Assembly (NCBI GenBank): GCA_035315185.1
Contig: DATFYE010000027.1
Coordinates: 4,021-68,020, forward strand
Direction of reading: 5' to 3'
DNA: 64,000 bases
DNA from: Syntrophorhabdales bacterium
Lineage (GTDB): Bacteria; Desulfobacterota; Syntrophorhabdia; Syntrophorhabdales; WCHB1-27
In this document: positions 45,483 to 58,390 of the stretch, in pieces
Layout of the letters: every line of letters begins with the position of its first letter
Numbering within the stretch: the first letter of the stretch is position 1
Notes under the pieces: generated by a model
The model's database searches: none
What the model saw: the letters and a program-made list of their open reading frames with translations, nothing else
Told to the model about the DNA's origin: nothing
Position numbers and translations under genes: made by a program

Positions 45483-45613
45483 AGCGTCACTCCTTGATAT
45501 CTAAAGGCTTCTGGATTATAGCAATATGGCTCCATAGAATCCATAGCAAAGAGTTCATAGGTGGTTTTTCCAGCGGGTGATCAGCAAGGCTGTTAGCAAT
45601 TTTTCAAAAGTGA

Positions 45614-45929
45614 ACTGTCGTACGATTCAAAAGTGAACTCCTACCAAGAACCTGTGACAGCACGCGCTTCACCGTTTCCTTCGCTCGCTGGTGCTCCGCC
45701 TCACACCCGCTCTATGGTCTCCTTCCGCTTGCCTGCGGAACTCGCGCACGCCTGCTGTCGACAGCAGGCTTACCGCTCAAACAATCCTCGGCATGCGCCT
45801 CACACGGCGCACCGCTCCCTCCGACCAAGGCGGGTACCCGAGAGGCATCCGCAATGCTTCGCTCAGGAAAGGTGCACCGGTGCTGCTTAGGGTCAAGCAA
45901 GAGTTCACTTTTCAGTCGTAGGCGACAGT
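45614..45929. mobile_element. Copy 1 of a structured ~215-bp core repeat, with its own ~28-bp imperfect terminal inverted repeats
   Basis: The core (45671-45880) is about 85% identical to the copies at 51884-52101 and 54657-54874. TIR: ACTGTCGTACGATTCAAAAGTGAACTC (45614-40) versus the reverse complement of 45901-29. A 15-bp direct repeat GTGATCAGCAAGGCT lies at 45577-91 and 45930-44. Confidence 0.6.
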
Positions 45930-46043
45930 GTGATCAGCAAGGCTTGACAGACAGCTTGAGTTCAACCTATGTTTGAGGAAGAGGTGGCTGTAACGAGTTC
46001 GCCTCCTCGATGGATACGAGATATGGGTGTTAGAGGAGCCGGC

Positions 46044-50812: not shown

Positions 50813-51835
50813 TTAATGTGATTTAAGGTAGTCAAGACAGAACTTGAGAACCTCGTCCCCGGGGAATCCCTTCGCCTTCACGCCCTTCGCGTACTCGTCG
50901 AGGAGGGGCCTTACCTGAGCGGCCCAGCGTGCGTCTTCCTCCTTTGAGAGGGCTATGATTTTGCTGCCCCTTACCTGCACCACCTCGATAGCCTCTTTGT
51001 CGATCTCATCCCAGGCCTTACCCTCTTTCTCGATCCACTCGTCGTTGACCTTTTCGATCACCTTCTGATCGGCGGGTGAGATGGAGTTCCACTTTGCCTT
51101 GTTCATGACCACAAAGTGCGCAGAGGTATAAGCCGCACCGTAATCCAGAGTGTGGCTGCTGACCACTTCAGCCAGCTTCCAGCCTTTCATCGCCTCGAAT
51201 GGGCAAAGGATTGCATCGGCGACACCCTTCGAGAGTGCATCGTAAGCCTCGCCCATCGGCATGCCGACGGGTGCGCCGCCAAGAGCCTGGACGATGTTTG
51301 CTGCGACACCCTGAGACCGGATCTTGAGACCCTTAACGTCTTCGAGCTTAGCGACGGGCCTCTTACTGTGGAGTAAGCCGGGGCCATGGGAGTAAAAGTA
51401 AAGGACTCGTGTCTCGTCCCATTCCTTCGGCTTGAACTCGTTGTAAAATGCATTGGTCATGTGTGTTGCTTGGGTAGCGCTTTTGTATCCGAGCGGCAGA
51501 CCGACCACCTCGGTAAGCGGGAACTTTCCTCTCGTGTACGCCGCGTCGGCAAGCCCTATATCGGCGATACCCTTCACCACGCTATCATATGTCTGCACGG
51601 CGGGGGTGAGAGTGTTATTCGGAAAGACCGTAACTTTGATTCGTCCATTGGTCCTTTTTTCAACTTCTTTACACCAGTCATTGACCACCTGACTCTGCCG
51701 GTGCGGAGCGGGGAACATTGTCGAATAGCGGAGAGTGATCGTTTTTTCCTCCGCTGCGCCACTCTGACAAGGGATAAGACAGACAAAAAAAGCGAAGACA
51801 AGAAAACCGGTACCAATAACGGAAAACTTTTTCAT
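50813..51835 (-). CDS. TRAP transporter solute-binding protein, DctP family (orphan)
   Basis: About 340 aa from ATG 51835 (RBS AAGGAGG). Signal peptide. The ORF-track start at 51964 extends into the repeat element. Confidence 0.82.
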   Translation of the reverse strand: MKKFSVIGTGFLVFAFFVCLIPCQSGAAEEKTITLRYSTMFPAPHRQSQVVNDWCKEVEKRTNGRIKVTVFPNNTLTPAVQTYDSVVKGIADIGLADAAYTRGKFPLTEVVGLPLGYKSATQATHMTNAFYNEFKPKEWDETRVLYFYSHGPGLLHSKRPVAKLEDVKGLKIRSQGVAANIVQALGGAPVGMPMGEAYDALSKGVADAILCPFEAMKGWKLAEVVSSHTLDYGAAYTSAHFVVMNKAKWNSISPADQKVIEKVNDEWIEKEGKAWDEIDKEAIEVVQVRGSKIIALSKEEDARWAAQVRPLLDEYAKGVKAKGFPGDEVLKFCLDYLKSH

Positions 51836-51856
51836 AACCGCCTCCTTAGTCTTGAG

Positions 51857-52101
51857 TAGTATTGTCCGAATCCGCGCTGGCTTCAACCATTTCCTTCGCT
51901 CGCTGCTGCTCCGTCTCTCACCCGTTCTAAGTTCTCCTTCCGCTTGCCTGTGGAACTCGCGCACGCCTGCTATCGATAGCAGGCTTACCGCTCAGACAGT
52001 CCTCGTCATGCGCCCCACACTGCGCACCGCTCCCTCCGAACATAAGACGGGTCCCGAGAGACTCCCGCAATGCTTCGCTCAGGAAAGGTTGAGCCGCGCT
52101 C
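51857..52101. mobile_element. Copy 2 of the structured core repeat (left arm present, right arm missing)
   Basis: About 95% identical to copy 3 across 51857-52101. The homology ends at ...GAGCCGCGCTC. It lies 22 nt upstream of the dctP start codon. Confidence 0.6.
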
Positions 52102-52188
52102 TGTACGATTGTTTTGCTTGCATTCAAGATTTCTCAACCTCAACCTGCTTTTTCTTTTTCCTGCTTTCTCCCTAACCTGTTGTTCCTG

Positions 52189-53583
52189 CTAGACCAGGTC
52201 CTCCGGCTTCGGAATATATTTTTTCAAATCAATCCGCTTCATCACATCCTCAGGCACAACCGCGACAGGAGGAAAATCCTTTCGGAAAGGCTTTGCTGTT
52301 GCGTCGATACCCACTTTTGTCACCACCGCCTCTTGCGCCGCAGACAGATCGAGGTCAGTCCCGAGCACACCCGGCAGAATCATCACATCCCTGTCAGCCT
52401 GGACCCTGGTGGCGAGCGCCCACGTTATTTGAGCTCCGTTATCGAGATCGATGTCAGAGTCGAAACAGATCACATACTTGAGGTACATATCGTTTGCAAA
52501 GGCGGCCAGGATGGCCTGCTTGGGCTGGCCCGCATGTTTTTTGTCGAGTTGAATAAAGCCGTACCACCATCCCGCTGCCGCTATAAACTTGAACTTCTTG
52601 ACGTCGGGCACAGCCTCTTTTAGTTTGCGGTTCATGAACGCATGCTGCGGGAGGCGCCCCATGAGCATGCCTTTGCTCGGCCAGGCACCCATGTCGTGCA
52701 CGATAGGGTTTTTCCTGTGCGTTATGGCGGTGATTTTTACAGGATGGCGCATGGCGACCTGGTGATACTTGGTGAAATCTCCCCATGGGCCCTCCTGCTC
52801 GCGGACGCCGGGAGGGATTACGCCCTCTATGATGATCTCAGCGCGCGCAGGGACGAGCACATCACTGGTCTCACACGTCACCACCTCCAGCGGCTCGCCC
52901 ATCAAGCTGCCCGCAATATCAAACTCTGAAGGCGGATGGCCGACACGACTCTGGAAGGCGGTCGCCCACGCGGGGTGAAGCCCTACGGCAAACGCGATCG
53001 GGAGAGGCTCGTTCCGCTCCATGTATTCATTATAGATGTACCAGAAATGGCGGCCGGGCGTGATGTGCGTGACACCGAGATGCGGTTTCTTTACCATAAA
53101 ACGGTAATGGGAACAGTGAGGCGCATTTATTTTTCTGTCCATTACGATGCCCACGGCCCGCGTCAAATAGGGCGCTTCGCCCTTGTGATGTGTGATGAAA
53201 GGAAAGCGGGTCATGTCAGCCTTTTTTCCGGTCAGGACAACATCCCTGCAAGGAGCATCTTTTTTATTGATCTCTTTTGCAGGGTATTTGTTCAGCCTGA
53301 TTGCCTCCTCTTCCTTTTCCGCATAATAGTCCTCCACTTTTTCAGGAGGGATACCAAGGGCCAGGCCGTATTTGGTCGCGCTCGTCTCAGTATTACAGAC
53401 GACAGGCGTGCTGTACCCTTTCACATTCTCAAAGAGCACCATGGGATATTTTCCCATCAGGTCCAGTTTCTTGATTATTGCGGAGATCTCATATTTGGGA
53501 TCAACCTCTCGCGTGACCCGGACATACTCCTGCGGCAGCTTCTTTTCGCACTCCGCCATGAACGTTCTCAAATCTTTCGGCAT
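52189..53583 (-). CDS. UbiD-family decarboxylase, fourth paralog
   Basis: About 464 aa from ATG 53583 (RBS GGAGGG). UbiD fold. Confidence 0.82.
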   Translation of the reverse strand: MPKDLRTFMAECEKKLPQEYVRVTREVDPKYEISAIIKKLDLMGKYPMVLFENVKGYSTPVVCNTETSATKYGLALGIPPEKVEDYYAEKEEEAIRLNKYPAKEINKKDAPCRDVVLTGKKADMTRFPFITHHKGEAPYLTRAVGIVMDRKINAPHCSHYRFMVKKPHLGVTHITPGRHFWYIYNEYMERNEPLPIAFAVGLHPAWATAFQSRVGHPPSEFDIAGSLMGEPLEVVTCETSDVLVPARAEIIIEGVIPPGVREQEGPWGDFTKYHQVAMRHPVKITAITHRKNPIVHDMGAWPSKGMLMGRLPQHAFMNRKLKEAVPDVKKFKFIAAAGWWYGFIQLDKKHAGQPKQAILAAFANDMYLKYVICFDSDIDLDNGAQITWALATRVQADRDVMILPGVLGTDLDLSAAQEAVVTKVGIDATAKPFRKDFPPVAVVPEDVMKRIDLKKYIPKPEDLV

Positions 53584-53626
53584 CAAGCCCTCCTTTTTTT
53601 GTACAAGCCTCGCTCGCATCCTGCGA

Positions 53627-54607
53627 TTACTTCTTCCACGCGCCAATCTCTTTCAGATACTTTTCCGCTCCCGGATGAAAGGGAACGGGGGTAGCCTTTG
53701 TCATGTTCTCCAGCGTAAAGTCGCCTGGTGTCGAAGCATGGATCGCATAGTAGTCCTGCCGGTGTTCCCAGAGATTTTTCAGGAACCGGTAGACAAAATC
53801 CTCACTCACGTCAGCATGGGTGAAGATGCTGGTTGCAAATCCGTAAACGGGCGTATCCTGATCCATGCCTCTGTACGATTTTGCTTTGATGACCCTTTTG
53901 TAGTAATACGGATGTTCCGGCAGCACCTTGTTGAAAGCCTGTTCGTCGACGGGCACCACGCGGGCGGGCGTGAGCTGTGAGAGTTCCATGTACGACGGCA
54001 TCGGATAGGCTCCTCCGAGAAAGCCGCCGTCGAGGCTCCCGTTCTGTATCCCTTCAACCACCTCTTTGAACACGTAGTAGTAAGGTTTGAAATCGTTCTT
54101 TGTCACACCGTGCGCTTCAAAGAAGAGAAGGGCGCTCGTGGAAACCGTGCTGCCCGGGCCTCCGATCCCGATGCGCTTGCCTTTAGCATCCGCAAAAGAT
54201 TTGATAGGACCTTTAGCCGGCACGGCAAAATATTGGTCCGAACCATTGATGAAGCAGATTGCCCGAAGCGTGGAGAATGGTTTGCCCGCGTATTCGCCAA
54301 GACCTTTATATGCCCGGAAGCCGTCAGGAGTGCCGAAAAGGGCGAAGGCAGGCTTCTTACCGGCCTCCCTCTGCATCATGCGCCGGACCATCTCCATGGT
54401 GCCTGTCGCAGCTTCATGAACAAAGTTGGCATCCGGCATGTACTTGTTCGTCACAGCGGCCACGCCTGCACCGAGAATGTAGACAGTGCCACCCGAAGGC
54501 GGTGTGTACAGGGGCGCCAACTCCGCAGCTTGTATTGACGGATGACTGCACAAGAGTATCAGAGCCGCGAAGCCGAGAACAGATGCAATGAGTCTAACAT
54601 ATTTCAT
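53627..54607 (-). CDS. TAXI-family TRAP solute-binding protein
   Basis: About 326 aa from ATG 54607. Signal peptide. GGTVYILGAGVAAV and GIGGPGSTV motifs. Confidence 0.78.
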   Translation of the reverse strand: MKYVRLIASVLGFAALILLCSHPSIQAAELAPLYTPPSGGTVYILGAGVAAVTNKYMPDANFVHEAATGTMEMVRRMMQREAGKKPAFALFGTPDGFRAYKGLGEYAGKPFSTLRAICFINGSDQYFAVPAKGPIKSFADAKGKRIGIGGPGSTVSTSALLFFEAHGVTKNDFKPYYYVFKEVVEGIQNGSLDGGFLGGAYPMPSYMELSQLTPARVVPVDEQAFNKVLPEHPYYYKRVIKAKSYRGMDQDTPVYGFATSIFTHADVSEDFVYRFLKNLWEHRQDYYAIHASTPGDFTLENMTKATPVPFHPGAEKYLKEIGAWKK

Positions 54608-54631
54608 CCGCACCCCCTCTTCTGCGCATTA

Positions 54632-54903
54632 GTATTGTCAAAATCCGTGCTGGCTTCAACCATTTCCTTCGCTCGCTGGTGCTCCGTCTCTCACCCGTTC
54701 TAAGTTCTCCTTCCGCTTGCCTGTGGAACTCGCGCACGCCTGCTGTCGACAGCAGGCTTACCGCTCAGACAGTCCTCGGCATGCGCCTCACACTGCGCAC
54801 CGCTCCCTCCGAACATAAGACGGGTCCCGCGAGACTGCCGCAATGCTTCGCTCAGGAAAGGTTGAGCCGCGCTCCGCATTTCTCGTAAAACTTTTGACAA
54901 TAC
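54632..54903. mobile_element. Copy 3 of the core repeat: a MITE-like 272-bp element with perfect 12-bp TIRs and a 10-bp flanking direct duplication
   Basis: GTATTGTCAAAA (54632-43) pairs with TTTTGACAATAC (54892-903). The element is flanked by CTGCGCATTA at 54622-31 and 54904-13. It sits 25 nt upstream of the TAXI start codon. Confidence 0.7.
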
Positions 54904-54971
54904 CTGCGCATTACCGCTTCGTCACCTTCAGTATTGCTGTTGTCGCTGGTTTCTTATCGCTTGCGACAGGC

Positions 54972-55006
54972 CACTGATCACCGATCACTGATCACTCTCT
55001 TTATGC
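54972..55006. repeat. Heptamer array abutting the larA-like stop codon
   Basis: CACTGAT CACCGAT CACTGAT CACTCTC TTTATGC. It has the same architecture as 58455-58489. Confidence 0.65.
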
Positions 55007-56296
55007 CACGCCCGGTATGATATTACCTCCAGAGGGAAAGATTGCAACATCAGCCTTCGGCATCTTATTCGCGGCCATATCGACTGCTTCTAAGAGGCTC
55101 CGCGCGTGGGTGAACTTCATCATGCGCACCGTCTCTGTCGGCAACCCTTCGGTGACGTGAATCACGTCGAACTTCTCCGCAAGTTCCTTGAAAAAGACCA
55201 CCTGCATAATATAAGAGATGCCGAAGGAGGTGAGTTGGTCAGGAATGTTCCCTGAGATGAGTCTCCGGTGAAAGTCGGTTGCTGTCTCAGAGCTTGCCAT
55301 CTCCTGAACGAGAGGCAGAATCGGGCCAGCCTCTTTTTGCGGTGCGACCCAGATAATGATGCCTCCCGAGCGAGTACAATATCCGGCCATGGTCAAGGCC
55401 TTGGTAGCCTGCACGGCGATCTCCAGAGGATATGCCGAAGTGATCGTCACGTCAGCCACCTTAGCGAGCGGTACGAAATAAAGCGACGTCGCAAACTTCG
55501 CGGCCTCTTTCTGTTCAGCCATGGTTTCACCGGCGAAGGCCCGGATGATCTCCTTCTTATCATTGATCACGAGGTCAAGTTTGAAGGCCAGACGGGCCAG
55601 TCGTCCGGCGTCGACAACCTCTTCATAAAAAGGGTTGCCCTCCATCACGTTCACCTTGGCGTAACGGTGGCGGATCCAGGCGAAATGATGATCGGCGACT
55701 GCCCGGTAAGAGGAGACACCGGGCATGACGATCTTATATCCGCCGCCGAAACCTGCAGTCGGGTGAGGCATGCATTCACCAACGCCTATAATCAAGTCGG
55801 CAAAGGCCACATGCGGATTGATCTCAACGATGGTACCCCTGTGCGTACGGCCGATGACCACATTCTGCGTCGAGTACGGATCATGCGAGATGAGCCGCTC
55901 ACCGAGACGTTTCGCAACTTCTTCACCAGCCTTTTTCTTGAGCTGTTCGTAGGAAAGAACCGGGTGTGTTCCCAGGGCGCAAACAGCAGTCATTCGAGAA
56001 TCGGGAATCCCCGCGCGGTTGAGCCGGTTCATCAATTCCGGAAGGGCCAGGTGCGCAGGTGTTGGCCGCTGCAGGTCGTCAAACAAGAGTACGACGTCCA
56101 TCCCCGGTTTCGCGAGTTCTTCCAGCTTCGGACTTCCTATAGGGTTGTCGAGCGCCCTCCTGATTTCTGCGACAGGATCGGCAACACCGGGAACTGTCGG
56201 CTTATCTTGATCAGAGAGCACTTTCCATCCACTGGGGAGGGAGAAACAGATCTGCTTGCCTTCACAGATGACATACCGTTCACGCGTTTCAGCCAT
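55001..56296 (-). CDS. LarA-family (nickel-pincer cofactor dependent) 2-hydroxyacid racemase/epimerase homolog
   Basis: 431 aa. DUF2088 N-domain with ALGTHP and GFGGGYKIVMPGV motifs. Confidence 0.75.
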   Translation of the reverse strand: MAETRERYVICEGKQICFSLPSGWKVLSDQDKPTVPGVADPVAEIRRALDNPIGSPKLEELAKPGMDVVLLFDDLQRPTPAHLALPELMNRLNRAGIPDSRMTAVCALGTHPVLSYEQLKKKAGEEVAKRLGERLISHDPYSTQNVVIGRTHRGTIVEINPHVAFADLIIGVGECMPHPTAGFGGGYKIVMPGVSSYRAVADHHFAWIRHRYAKVNVMEGNPFYEEVVDAGRLARLAFKLDLVINDKKEIIRAFAGETMAEQKEAAKFATSLYFVPLAKVADVTITSAYPLEIAVQATKALTMAGYCTRSGGIIIWVAPQKEAGPILPLVQEMASSETATDFHRRLISGNIPDQLTSFGISYIMQVVFFKELAEKFDVIHVTEGLPTETVRMMKFTHARSLLEAVDMAANKMPKADVAIFPSGGNIIPGVA

Positions 56297-56299
56297 CTA

Positions 56300-57304
56300 T
56301 CACCTCGTCTTGGTAAGTACTTTTTTCAGCTCCGGTGTGGTCTTGGGCGCCTTTTCTGCCAGCTCTGCCCAGCCTGCGTCGTACGCCGTTTTCAGGAATT
56401 TTTCGCTCTCAGCAGGCGACAGTTGTATGACCTCGATCCCTTCCTTCTGTAATATCGGACGCTCCTTTTTCTTCAGATCGTCAAACAGGGCGACCGCCTT
56501 CTTCTCCCCTTCTATTGCCGCCTCGTTCAGGATATCCTGGAGCTTCTTCGGCAATCCGTTGTAAGTTTTCATGTTGAGGAGCACGGGATTGGGCACGTTA
56601 TAAAAACCGGGTTCGACCACATACTTGGTCACCTTGTCCCAGCCCCAATCGCGTATCCCGACCGAGGGCCAGCAGTAGCCATCGACCACGTGACGTTCGA
56701 GCGCGGCGTATACCTCGGTCGGCGGTATCACAACCGGGTTTCCGCCCAGCGTCTTTATCGCCTGGAGCTGGTTGGCTGATACCCTGATATTAAGTCCCTT
56801 CAAATCAGCGCTCTTGATTGGCTTCAATAGGTAAAGATGAAACCTGAGATCGAGACCGAGCCGTGCCTGGTAACGGAGCCCGAGCCTCTGTTCGTGCAGC
56901 GTGTTAAAATAGGCCCAGGCGCCGCTTGCCCTCTCCTCCATGGGTGTCATGGTGGAAAGCTTCATCGCGTCAGCCTCGGGCAACACCGAAAGATAGTACG
57001 CGTTTGTGGTGAAGACCATGTCCACCATACCACGCTGCGCAGCCGCTACTTGATCCATGGTTTTTACTGCTTCGGGTCCGCCGATATAGTTGATCTTCAG
57101 CTCGCCCGGCGCCTTCTTTGCTACAAGCTGCTCAACAAGATCCGTGAAGATAAAGAACGCCTGGTTGTCTGTGGCTGTTTTCGGCCAGGCCGTCACAGCC
57201 TTGAGCGTGAAGACCTCAGCCGCTTTGGCAGGAATAGTCTGCGTAAAGAGTATCGAGACCGCGACCAGCACTACAAAGAGAAGAACGCCCGATCTTCTTT
57301 TCAT
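56300..57304 (-). CDS. TRAP solute-binding protein, DctP family (paralog B)
   Basis: 334 aa. Signal peptide. About 55-60% identical by eye to the adjacent paralog. Confidence 0.82.
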   Translation of the reverse strand: MKRRSGVLLFVVLVAVSILFTQTIPAKAAEVFTLKAVTAWPKTATDNQAFFIFTDLVEQLVAKKAPGELKINYIGGPEAVKTMDQVAAAQRGMVDMVFTTNAYYLSVLPEADAMKLSTMTPMEERASGAWAYFNTLHEQRLGLRYQARLGLDLRFHLYLLKPIKSADLKGLNIRVSANQLQAIKTLGGNPVVIPPTEVYAALERHVVDGYCWPSVGIRDWGWDKVTKYVVEPGFYNVPNPVLLNMKTYNGLPKKLQDILNEAAIEGEKKAVALFDDLKKKERPILQKEGIEVIQLSPAESEKFLKTAYDAGWAELAEKAPKTTPELKKVLTKTR

Positions 57305-57330
57305 GGATGAACCCCCTCGATGTTTTTATG

Positions 57331-57356
57331 CAGGCCGGGCAAGCTGCGCCGGCCTG
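57331..57356. other. 8-bp-stem hairpin between the tandem dctP paralogs
   Basis: CAGGCCGG-(10 nt)-CCGGCCTG. No U-tract follows on the coding strand. Confidence 0.4.
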
Positions 57357-57385
57357 TCGTTCTCACAGACTACAGATGATTTATC

Positions 57386-58390
57386 TTACTTCCCCATTTT
57401 CTTTGTCAGTAGCTTTTTGAGCTCGGGACCTGTTTTCGGACATTTCTCTATGACATCTTTCCATCCCTCATCGTAGGCGATCTTCAGGAATTTTTCCTTC
57501 TCCGCCGGGGGGAGGTCAATCACCTGAAGACCAGCCTTTTTCAGAAGGGGAATCTCCTTCTTGCCTTCCTCCTCGTAAAAGGCGACCGTTTTTCTCTCGG
57601 ATTCCATGGCAGCCTCCGTCAAAACATCCTGGAACTTTTTCGGTAGCGCGTTCCATGCTTTTAGATTCATGATGAGAGGGTGTGGCCCTGAGTAAAATCC
57701 AGGCTCAACGATATACTTGGTCTGCTTTTCCCATCCCCACTCCCGGATGCTGACGAGCACAAAGCAATAACCATCGACGACCTTTCTTTCCAGGGCTTGG
57801 TAAACGTCCGTGGGCGGGATTACTACGGGATTGCCTCCGAGACCCTTGATAACTTGGAGGTACATGGGAGAGACGCGGATGTTGAATCCTTTAAGATCGG
57901 CCGTTTTTATTGGCCGCGTTAAATAAAGGTAAAAGGGCGCATCAATGCCGAGTCTGCCCAGAAGATAGAGACCTTTCTTTTCGTGCAGGTCATTAAAGTA
58001 AGCCATGGCCCCGTTTGCCCTTTCCTCCCAGGGCTTGAAATCTGAAAGCTTCATAGCATCAACTTCCGGGACCTCCGAAACATAGTAGGCGTTGGTGGTA
58101 TGGACAATATCAACCATACCAGTCTGTGCGGCGTGCGCCTGGTCCTGGATCTTGACGGCCTCAGGGCCCCCAACGAGGTTCAGCTTCAGTTCTCCTGGAT
58201 ACTTCTTTGCCACCTGCTGTTCAACGCTCTCCATGAAATAGAGTAGTGATTTGTTGTCAGTGGTATTCTTTGGCCATGCTGTGACAACCTTAAGCGTGAT
58301 TGTCTGAGCCTCGGCCATCTGGGTCAAAAACGGCAGCAATAGAAAGGCTAAAAACGCGGCGGACAGTAACAAGCCAAATCGTTTTTTCAC
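57386..58390 (-). CDS. TRAP solute-binding protein, DctP family (paralog A)
   Basis: 334 aa. Signal peptide. TLKVVTAWPKNTTDNKS... Confidence 0.82.
   Translation of the reverse strand: MKKRFGLLLSAAFLAFLLLPFLTQMAEAQTITLKVVTAWPKNTTDNKSLLYFMESVEQQVAKKYPGELKLNLVGGPEAVKIQDQAHAAQTGMVDIVHTTNAYYVSEVPEVDAMKLSDFKPWEERANGAMAYFNDLHEKKGLYLLGRLGIDAPFYLYLTRPIKTADLKGFNIRVSPMYLQVIKGLGGNPVVIPPTDVYQALERKVVDGYCFVLVSIREWGWEKQTKYIVEPGFYSGPHPLIMNLKAWNALPKKFQDVLTEAAMESERKTVAFYEEEGKKEIPLLKKAGLQVIDLPPAEKEKFLKIAYDEGWKDVIEKCPKTGPELKKLLTKKMGK

Follow-up and report, generated by a model that had tools for sequence, protein, structure and literature searches.

The segment at 54632-54903 of the window (the whole stretch of 64,000 nucleotides analysed here) is likely a recent insertion of a non-autonomous, non-coding MITE, which would be moved by a transposase in trans, directed by the Shine-Dalgarno (SD) motif and co-transcribed as a leader. 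The element has 13-bp terminal inverted repeats (TIRs) and a target duplication, occurs in tens of copies with their own flanks, and is polymorphic at the predicted boundaries. The family is undescribed, and its hosts are uncultured Syntrophobacterales-like Deltaproteobacteria of soils and wetlands. It is nearly always found in one orientation, 13 nt before the ribosome-binding site.

Table 1 Features of the element family and its surroundings in the window
Feature	Position	Strand	Basis or remark
A-type MITE copy 3, mobile unit, 272 bp	54632-54903	minus	Empty-site joint and loose ends of other copies
Target-site duplication, gene-proximal, CTGCGCATTA	54622-54631		10 nt compatible with either side of the joint
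Target-site duplication, distal, CTGCGCATTA	54904-54913		
TIR at the sense 3' end of copy 3, ..TTTTGACAATAC	54632-54644	minus	
TIR at the sense 5' end of copy 3, GGTATTGTCAAAA	54891-54903	minus	
Conserved structured core	54645-54875	minus	Closing helix 54652-54667/54855-54868, long interrupted stem leading to a junction, three hairpins
20-nt palindrome GCCTGCTGTCGACAGCAGGC, apical hairpin of the core	54738-54757		
SD of the TAXI gene, GAGGGGG, 13 nt from the element end	54613-54619	minus	Read from sequence
TAXI-family TRAP solute-binding protein gene, directly downstream of the element	53627-54607	minus	PF16868 2.6e-55; TIGR02122
A-type copy 2, 5'-truncated	51859-52101	minus	No distal TIR, no flanking repeat
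B-type copy 1, 338 bp	45592-45929	minus	Same core, different termini; not SD-adjacent
15-bp direct repeat GTGATCAGCAAGGCT flanking copy 1	45577-45591 and 45930-45944		

Insertion polymorphism and copy number

The insertion of copy 3 is proven. A 585-nt contig joins position 54621 directly to 54904 and contains the 10-mer CTGCGCATTA once. This contig comes from run X3, a public soil metagenome, and represents a relative of about 94% identity; 282 bp are skipped, and 10 nt at the joint fit both sides. In four metagenomes, independent copies part from the window sequence precisely at 54632 and 54904, so that the mobile unit spans 54632-54903. Since copy 3 is polymorphic, its insertion is recent. 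The reading as a MITE insertion, put forward in the preliminary description, is thus borne out by the discovery of both further copies and an empty site.

Three copies are located in the window and four in three Syntrophobacterales-like MAGs, and metagenome contigs supply more than 30. When 185,579 species genomes were scanned with an 18-mer, 31 hits were returned, four of them with the whole element; these four genuine copies belong to two MAGs labelled 'delta proteobacterium' and one assigned to Syntrophobacterales. Metagenome contigs scanned with an independent core block yielded 41 loci, at which the element often lies at a contig end. With nhmmer, 38 copies were collected from MAGs and metagenomes, including 21 of full length and many others cut by the contig end; copy 3 scores 270-302 bits. 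Contigs encoding the identical TAXI protein also break within the element. Moreover, in four soil/wetland metagenomes the depth is 80-400 over the element versus about 9 over the flanking genes, and this ratio of about 20-40 indicates some 20-40 copies per genome equivalent. The dispersal expected of a MITE is apparent from the three copies per 64 kb, the depth ratio and the contig breaks, and insertion polymorphism is present at two sites, 54621 to 54904 (X3) and 45576 to 45930 (X3, X4).

The flanking repeats of other copies include AATCAAAA (L047), TTAACACA (L021), AGGTAGCT (L060), CGTAGG.. (L036) and the 10-nt CTCAGGAAAA (L064). They are 8-10 bp long and differ in sequence in w3, L047, L021, L060, L036 and L064. 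Perfect flanking repeats border four of the seven two-ended copies, compared with none of 42 controls in which the flanks were mismatched between copies.

These data bear on a different origin, in which the segment would be a structured leader or riboswitch that the TAXI operon inherited from its ancestors, and its flanking repeats a coincidence. The empty site in a close relative and the copy number refute this origin, and tens of copies before unrelated genes, each with its own flanking repeats, as well as the contigs breaking at the element, argue against it too. It would account for the 5' leader position, the conserved fold and the lack of a match to a known RNA family, and its probability is nonetheless practically negligible.

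Termini and coding capacity

The sense orientation of copy 3 corresponds to the minus strand of the window, which is also the strand of the TAXI gene. Its ends are perfect inverted repeats, as first described: GTATTGTCAAAA at 54632-54643 and its exact reverse complement at 54892-54903 enclose 248 nt. The other copies refine the family TIR to 13 bp, GGTATTGTCAAAA / TTTTGACAATACC, and TIRs of 12-13 bp are common to at least ten copies besides copy 3. In shuffled windows, the 12-mer GTATTGTCAAAA with at most one mismatch is expected 0.12 times per window and the 10-mer CTGCGCATTA 0.06 times; the former is seen only at the two TIR sites, and the latter only at the two flank sites. Neither the TIR pair nor the flanking 10-mer pair is due to chance. 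A 10-bp target-site duplication had been proposed, and CTGCGCATTA indeed abuts both ends of copy 3, but the family consensus is 8 bp. In a model consistent with both lengths, two extra bordering bases of copy 3 happen to match and stretch the 8-bp duplication to 10. The distal TIR is degraded or absent in about one third of the copies, and the sense 3' TIR (54632-54644 type) is kept even where the opposite one has been lost.

Comparison of 21 copies reveals no conserved ORF within the element, in line with the earlier claim of an insertion without an encoded transposase; the ORF lengths disagree between copies, which rules out a protein-coding reading. With 272 bp and no coding function, the element lies within the MITE size range of under about 600 bp. 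Two other types of small repeat were rejected. REP/REPIN sequences are GC-rich palindromes of 20-40 nt, RAYT-associated and without a duplication, whereas the present unit is 272 bp long with TIRs and a target duplication. An integron attC site (RYYYAAC / GTTRRRY, 57-141 bp, no flanking direct repeat) does not match either, as the ends lack core sites, the length is 272 bp and duplications are present.

A search of the window, 561 kb of related loci, and plasmid and viral collections revealed neither an autonomous element nor a transposase whose ends match, and blastn against 72,556 plasmids gave no match. The viral-contig scan with an 18-nt end produced three hits, all in one phage coding gene and without the core, which are attributed to chance. 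Other TIR occurrences in the window and the 561 kb of loci are likewise at chance level, and their sole apparent pair is located inside a membrane-protein gene. Apart from the autonomous partner, the element displays every MITE characteristic that could be tested. In the proposed mechanism, a DDE-type transposase acting in trans would bind the GGTATTGTCAAAA ends and cut with an 8-bp stagger; the GGnnnTG start together with the 8-bp duplication is presumably reminiscent of the IS1 and IS6 families.

Placement upstream of Shine-Dalgarno sites

The gene downstream of copy 3 encodes a TAXI receptor, as originally assigned (TIGR02122, 198.5 bits versus a cut-off of 84). Its start codon (ATG 54607-54605) is 24 nt from the element, one less than the 25 nt counted at first. 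The preliminary description correctly placed copy 3 upstream of the TAXI gene and missed the SD-proximal placement of the whole family, along with the different ends of the two other window copies and the 8-bp duplication length of the family.

Alignment of 23 copies at the gene-proximal end reveals a common order, in which the CC of the TIR end is followed by eight variable nucleotides (the duplication), an A-rich triplet and GGAGG. The GGAGG occupies +16 to +20 from the element end, with G at +16 in 21 of the 23 copies. At least 22 of about 30 copies have a start codon 23-27 nt from the element end, 24 nt being the commonest distance. Four additional foreign flanks, obtained in the empty-site analysis of metagenomes, have the same SD spacing. 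After orthologous loci were collapsed, about 25 independent sites remain, all sense-oriented relative to the downstream gene. The downstream genes are unrelated and code for TAXI and DctP binding proteins, two acyl-CoA ligases, hydrogenase small subunit, flavin reductase, glyoxalase, zinc alcohol dehydrogenase, thioesterase, flavodoxin-like reductase, M24 peptidase and saccharopine dehydrogenase.

Judged from positions only, recognition of a DNA motif by the A-type machinery is the most likely cause of this placement. Four observations point to it. The SD is more tightly positioned than the ATG, and one copy (L058) has an SD-like motif at the expected distance with no start codon there. Moreover, copy 3, being polymorphic and hence recent, already has the spacing, and B-type copies, which share the core, do not lie beside an SD. 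Selection for a spacing-dependent function could in principle give the same pattern. Under DNA-motif recognition, the machinery would read the SD motif, A-rich and then GGAGG, and insert the element in a single orientation, such that 5 bp separate the duplicated 8-mer from the motif downstream. Insertion at this distance, together with the 8-mer, would put the SD 13 nt and the start codon about 24 nt beyond the element end. We found no report of an SD-targeting transposon, MITE or insertion sequence in the literature searched, and a 2024 review of prokaryotic MITEs mentions neither ribosome sites nor orientation (PMC10969869).

Two further arrangements were observed at gene starts. In L034:225-370 and L055:12857-12961, the SD and ATG at the usual spacing open only a 7-codon ORF (MERVTLL and a stop), which represents a leader peptide or else the remains of a gene start. 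In L032:931 and L064:549, orthologous flavin-reductase genes (about 78% amino acid identity) have different element subtypes at the same spacing, which suggests independent hits on one SD or an old insertion with remodelled ends.

Structure and conservation of the core

The interior of the element is multi-branched, which excludes a simple long hairpin. The closing helix GGCTTCAACC-A-TTTCC / GGAAA-GGTTGAGCC and the 20-nt palindrome, both already recognized in copy 3, are present and supported by compensatory changes in other copies. Particularly, the palindrome hairpin changes from G-C to A-U in six copies, including window copy 2, and from U-A to C-G in three. In alignment A4 (21 copies), 94.3% of the cells are paired in a 75-pair structure. 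Changes on both sides affect 18 pairs, versus 8.6±1.7 in shuffles (0 of 500 reach 18) and 3-10 in slid controls, and compensatory changes occur in five helices, among them the closing helix, the long stem and the palindrome hairpin. The core of about 210 nt therefore has the conserved, covarying structure known from riboswitches and cis-regulatory leaders.

Column identity is 0.93 in the core versus 0.66 in the termini, and copies without the distal end retain an intact, covarying core. The core is better kept than the ends, the reverse of a typical decaying MITE, and selection, not just recent common descent, has preserved it. Within the core, conservation is alike in paired and unpaired columns (0.92-0.94), which leaves the argument for a ligand pocket unsupported. 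The predicted folding energy is -157 kcal/mol for the sense strand versus -143 kcal/mol for the antisense strand, and helices common to both strands contain 43 G.U versus 14 A.C, a difference that favours the sense strand only mildly. An Rfam search of both strands, at gathering score and at E≤10, returned nothing relevant, so that the core belongs to no curated RNA family there, and its downstream genes do not form the coherent set expected of a riboswitch or cis-regulatory leader.

Structural variants were also seen. L036:6391-6690 and L061:4689-4983 have each gained one more GC-rich hairpin (about 18-23 nt), inserted in the long stem at internal loops that lie opposite each other. The L061-type insertion also occurs in an RNA contig of run X27, and such hairpins are tolerated at two internal loops only. 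Another subtype (L064:546-829, L071:401-685, L022:76-358) keeps the gene-proximal end and the SD spacing. Its closing helix is re-paired (CCUGGCGGAAACC/GGUUUCCGCCAGG), and its distal end is different, longer and without an inverted repeat; L064 is still flanked by the 10-nt repeat CTCAGGAAAA.

We regard it as possible, though not as probable, that the core is a domesticated regulatory RNA, that is, a functional cis-acting module which MITE shells deliver to 5' leaders under host-level selection. It might, for instance, regulate translation or mRNA stability, serve as a platform to which proteins bind or act as a new ribozyme, and such a role would be compatible with the MITE explanation and add a function to it. 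The covariation in five helices agrees with such a function, yet it could also come from master copies selected for mobility. The difference in conservation between core and termini, the intact covarying core of immobile copies without a distal end, the confinement of additional hairpins to two internal loops and the excess of G.U over A.C in helices shared by both strands are in its favour, but the unpaired junctions are conserved no better than the stems. Likewise, the orientation is fixed to the sense of the downstream gene and one core is found in two shells with unrelated ends, but the B-type copies do not lie beside a gene start. In addition, the downstream genes share no common pathway, which argues against a classical metabolite riboswitch, the predicted effect on SD accessibility is nil, and relatives with empty sites express the same genes without the element.

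Other copies in the window and a second shell

The core occurs three times in the window in a single orientation (Table 1). Copy 2 is followed after 23 nt by the ATG (51835) of a DctP solute-binding protein gene, and other copies run on past 52101 into the canonical distal end. No empty site for copy 2 was found in the metagenomes examined. Its truncation and its presence in the X3 relative mark it as older and immobile.

Copy 1 has TIRs of about 20-28 bp around AAAAGTGAACTC. Its empty allele was found in two runs (X3 and X4), where 45576 is joined to 45930, with 353 bp skipped and 15 nt shared. The different shell of copy 1 and its own empty allele imply that the module of about 210 nt rides in at least two mobile shells. 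With the 15-bp repeat of this second shell, more than one mobilising mechanism is involved. A third allele of copy 1, in run X2, joins 45591 to 45965 through 19 foreign letters. A tandem duplication of TTCAAAAGTGAACT with a spacing of 23 occupies one end of copy 1 (45603-45639); L070 has a single unit there, so the exact B-type end is provisional.

The two repeat lengths, 8-10 bp in A-type and 15 bp in B-type copies, together with a core whose structure is conserved while the ends differ, would also be expected from SINE-like, RNA-mediated mobility. In that scheme, the core would be the recognition structure of a reverse transcriptase, and target-primed insertion would leave variable repeats. 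The defined TIRs and constant 8-bp duplication of the A-type contradict it, as does the absence of a 3' tail; no reverse transcriptase was seen nearby, and two different transposases are a simpler account of the two repeat lengths. RNA-mediated mobility is accordingly very improbable. A more far-reaching proposal, to which we give tentative credence at best, is that the A-type shell represents the first transposition system known to read the SD motif in DNA, and that the core is a selected RNA cargo, a mobile 5'-UTR cassette before unrelated genes that has been captured by at least two shells.

Transcription of the element at the TAXI locus

Upstream of copy 3 lies a LarA-like racemase gene on the minus strand. 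The preliminary description held that the element must either be co-transcribed as a leader or supply a promoter. The first option is favoured, and the second lacks backing, as no sigma-70-type promoter was predicted in the element or at its edge; an intrinsic terminator was not predicted there either. A sigma-54 reading of CAGCACGgattTTGAC, made from the sequence, fails at the invariant GG and GC positions.

Rather than delivering a promoter, the element is most likely transcribed along with adjacent genes, forming a self-contained structure in the leader or between cistrons. The fixed sense orientation of the family favours this reading, as does its frequent position between co-directional genes, many copies being found where such genes lie a short distance apart. 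The predicted fold is a closed unit with the element ends paired, and this self-contained fold points in the same direction. Predicted accessibility of the SD and start codon is 0.40 with the element versus 0.37 in reconstructed empty sites. Three metatranscriptome runs each yielded one low-depth contig over a family member, all unstranded and with DNA carry-over possible. One of the three extends from the core past the end of the element to the SD and ATG of the next gene and, within these limits, also favours co-transcription. In the corresponding model, the promoterless element would be transcribed from upstream in one mRNA that extends from the LarA-like gene through the element to the TAXI gene. 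The paired ends and covarying core would fold as a closed, self-contained structure and leave the SD as accessible as before.

A mobile promoter has precedents, because Correia elements and many insertion sequences do act in this way (PMC3184786). Here it would be an outward promoter that drives the downstream gene from the TTGACA in the outward-facing, gene-proximal TIR. However, no sigma-70-type promoter is found in the element or across its end, and with a 17-nt spacer the -10 box lands on the GGAGG of the SD, where a start would leave no leader. Many copies also lie between co-directional genes, and we consider promoter delivery very unlikely.

The surrounding minus-strand region at 50813-58390 contains three DctP-type and one TAXI binding-protein genes interleaved with UbiD-family decarboxylase and LarA-like racemase genes, and looks like a cluster for uptake and catabolism of organic/aromatic acids. 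Two of its binding-protein genes have the element in their leader. Between the stop codon of the LarA-like gene and the element, CACTGATCAC occurs twice, 14 nt apart, at 54972-54995. A related octamer, GTGATCAG, opens the 15-bp repeat of copy 1 (45577-45584 / 45930-45937), and from their sequences CACTGATCAC and GTGATCAG may represent an operator motif. Beside CACTGATCAC, TGGCCTGTCGCAAGC (54974-54960, minus strand) fits the GG-N10-GC spacing of sigma-54 promoters.

Comparison with known systems

Bacterial MITEs are little studied and are usually taken as randomly inserted junk or occasional promoters. The closest in kind is the Chunjie MITE of Geobacter uraniireducens Rf4, which is 178-235 bp long with 21-bp inverted repeats and 9-bp direct repeats (Chen et al. 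2008, as summarised in PMC3184786). Like the present element, Chunjie is deltaproteobacterial, non-coding, about 200 bp in size and bounded by inverted and direct repeats. Its RNA is also predicted to fold very stably (about -100 to -130 kcal/mol), and it was inserted in an operon that remained intact (PMC3184786). By its description, Chunjie differs in being A+T-rich, and neither an SD-proximal or orientation-specific placement nor a covarying core is reported for it (PMC3184786).

The Correia/NEMIS elements of Neisseria, ERIC, RUP and BOX are similarly small and non-autonomous with inverted ends, are co-transcribed and fold as RNA, and they can affect mRNA processing or stability. In contrast to the present family, they have TA or short duplications, lie at varied distances and in both orientations, and conserve their inverted repeats best; here the position relative to the SD is held within ±2 nt, and the core, not the ends, is conserved. 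The REP2 (CREN) repeats of Neisseria and the IR repeats of Borrelia are also habitually located immediately 5' of genes, but they bring their own promoter, ribosome-binding site and ATG and lack both inverted repeats and target duplications (PMC3184786). An upstream repeat of the REP2 type was rejected for our element, which has no promoter and whose ribosome-binding site and ATG lie outside it and are kept in the empty allele.

A fixed distance and orientation from a DNA motif is likewise found in Tn7/TnsD at attTn7 and in IS1397/ISKpn1 and IS110-family elements in REP/attC sites. Those systems target one locus or another repeat, whereas the apparent landmark here would be the generic SD motif, which would offer hundreds of eligible sites per genome. 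Riboswitches and structured 5' leaders resemble the element in being multi-stem, covarying RNAs of roughly 200 nt on the sense strand directly upstream of the SD. Unlike them, the element has no coherent gene set, expression platform or Rfam match, and it is mobile and polymorphic in presence or absence.

The element is a real MITE of a new family, and what is new about it is the SD-proximal, orientation-specific insertion combined with a covarying core common to two shells. If the targeting is mechanistic, it would reveal a new way in which transposases choose their targets. Metagenome assemblies of abundant syntroph-like bacteria of soils and wetlands are broken by the element exactly at gene starts, and the family would show how one structured RNA can enter the leaders of dozens of unrelated genes at once. 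The natural pairs of filled and empty alleles provide a means of measuring the effect of this RNA on expression.
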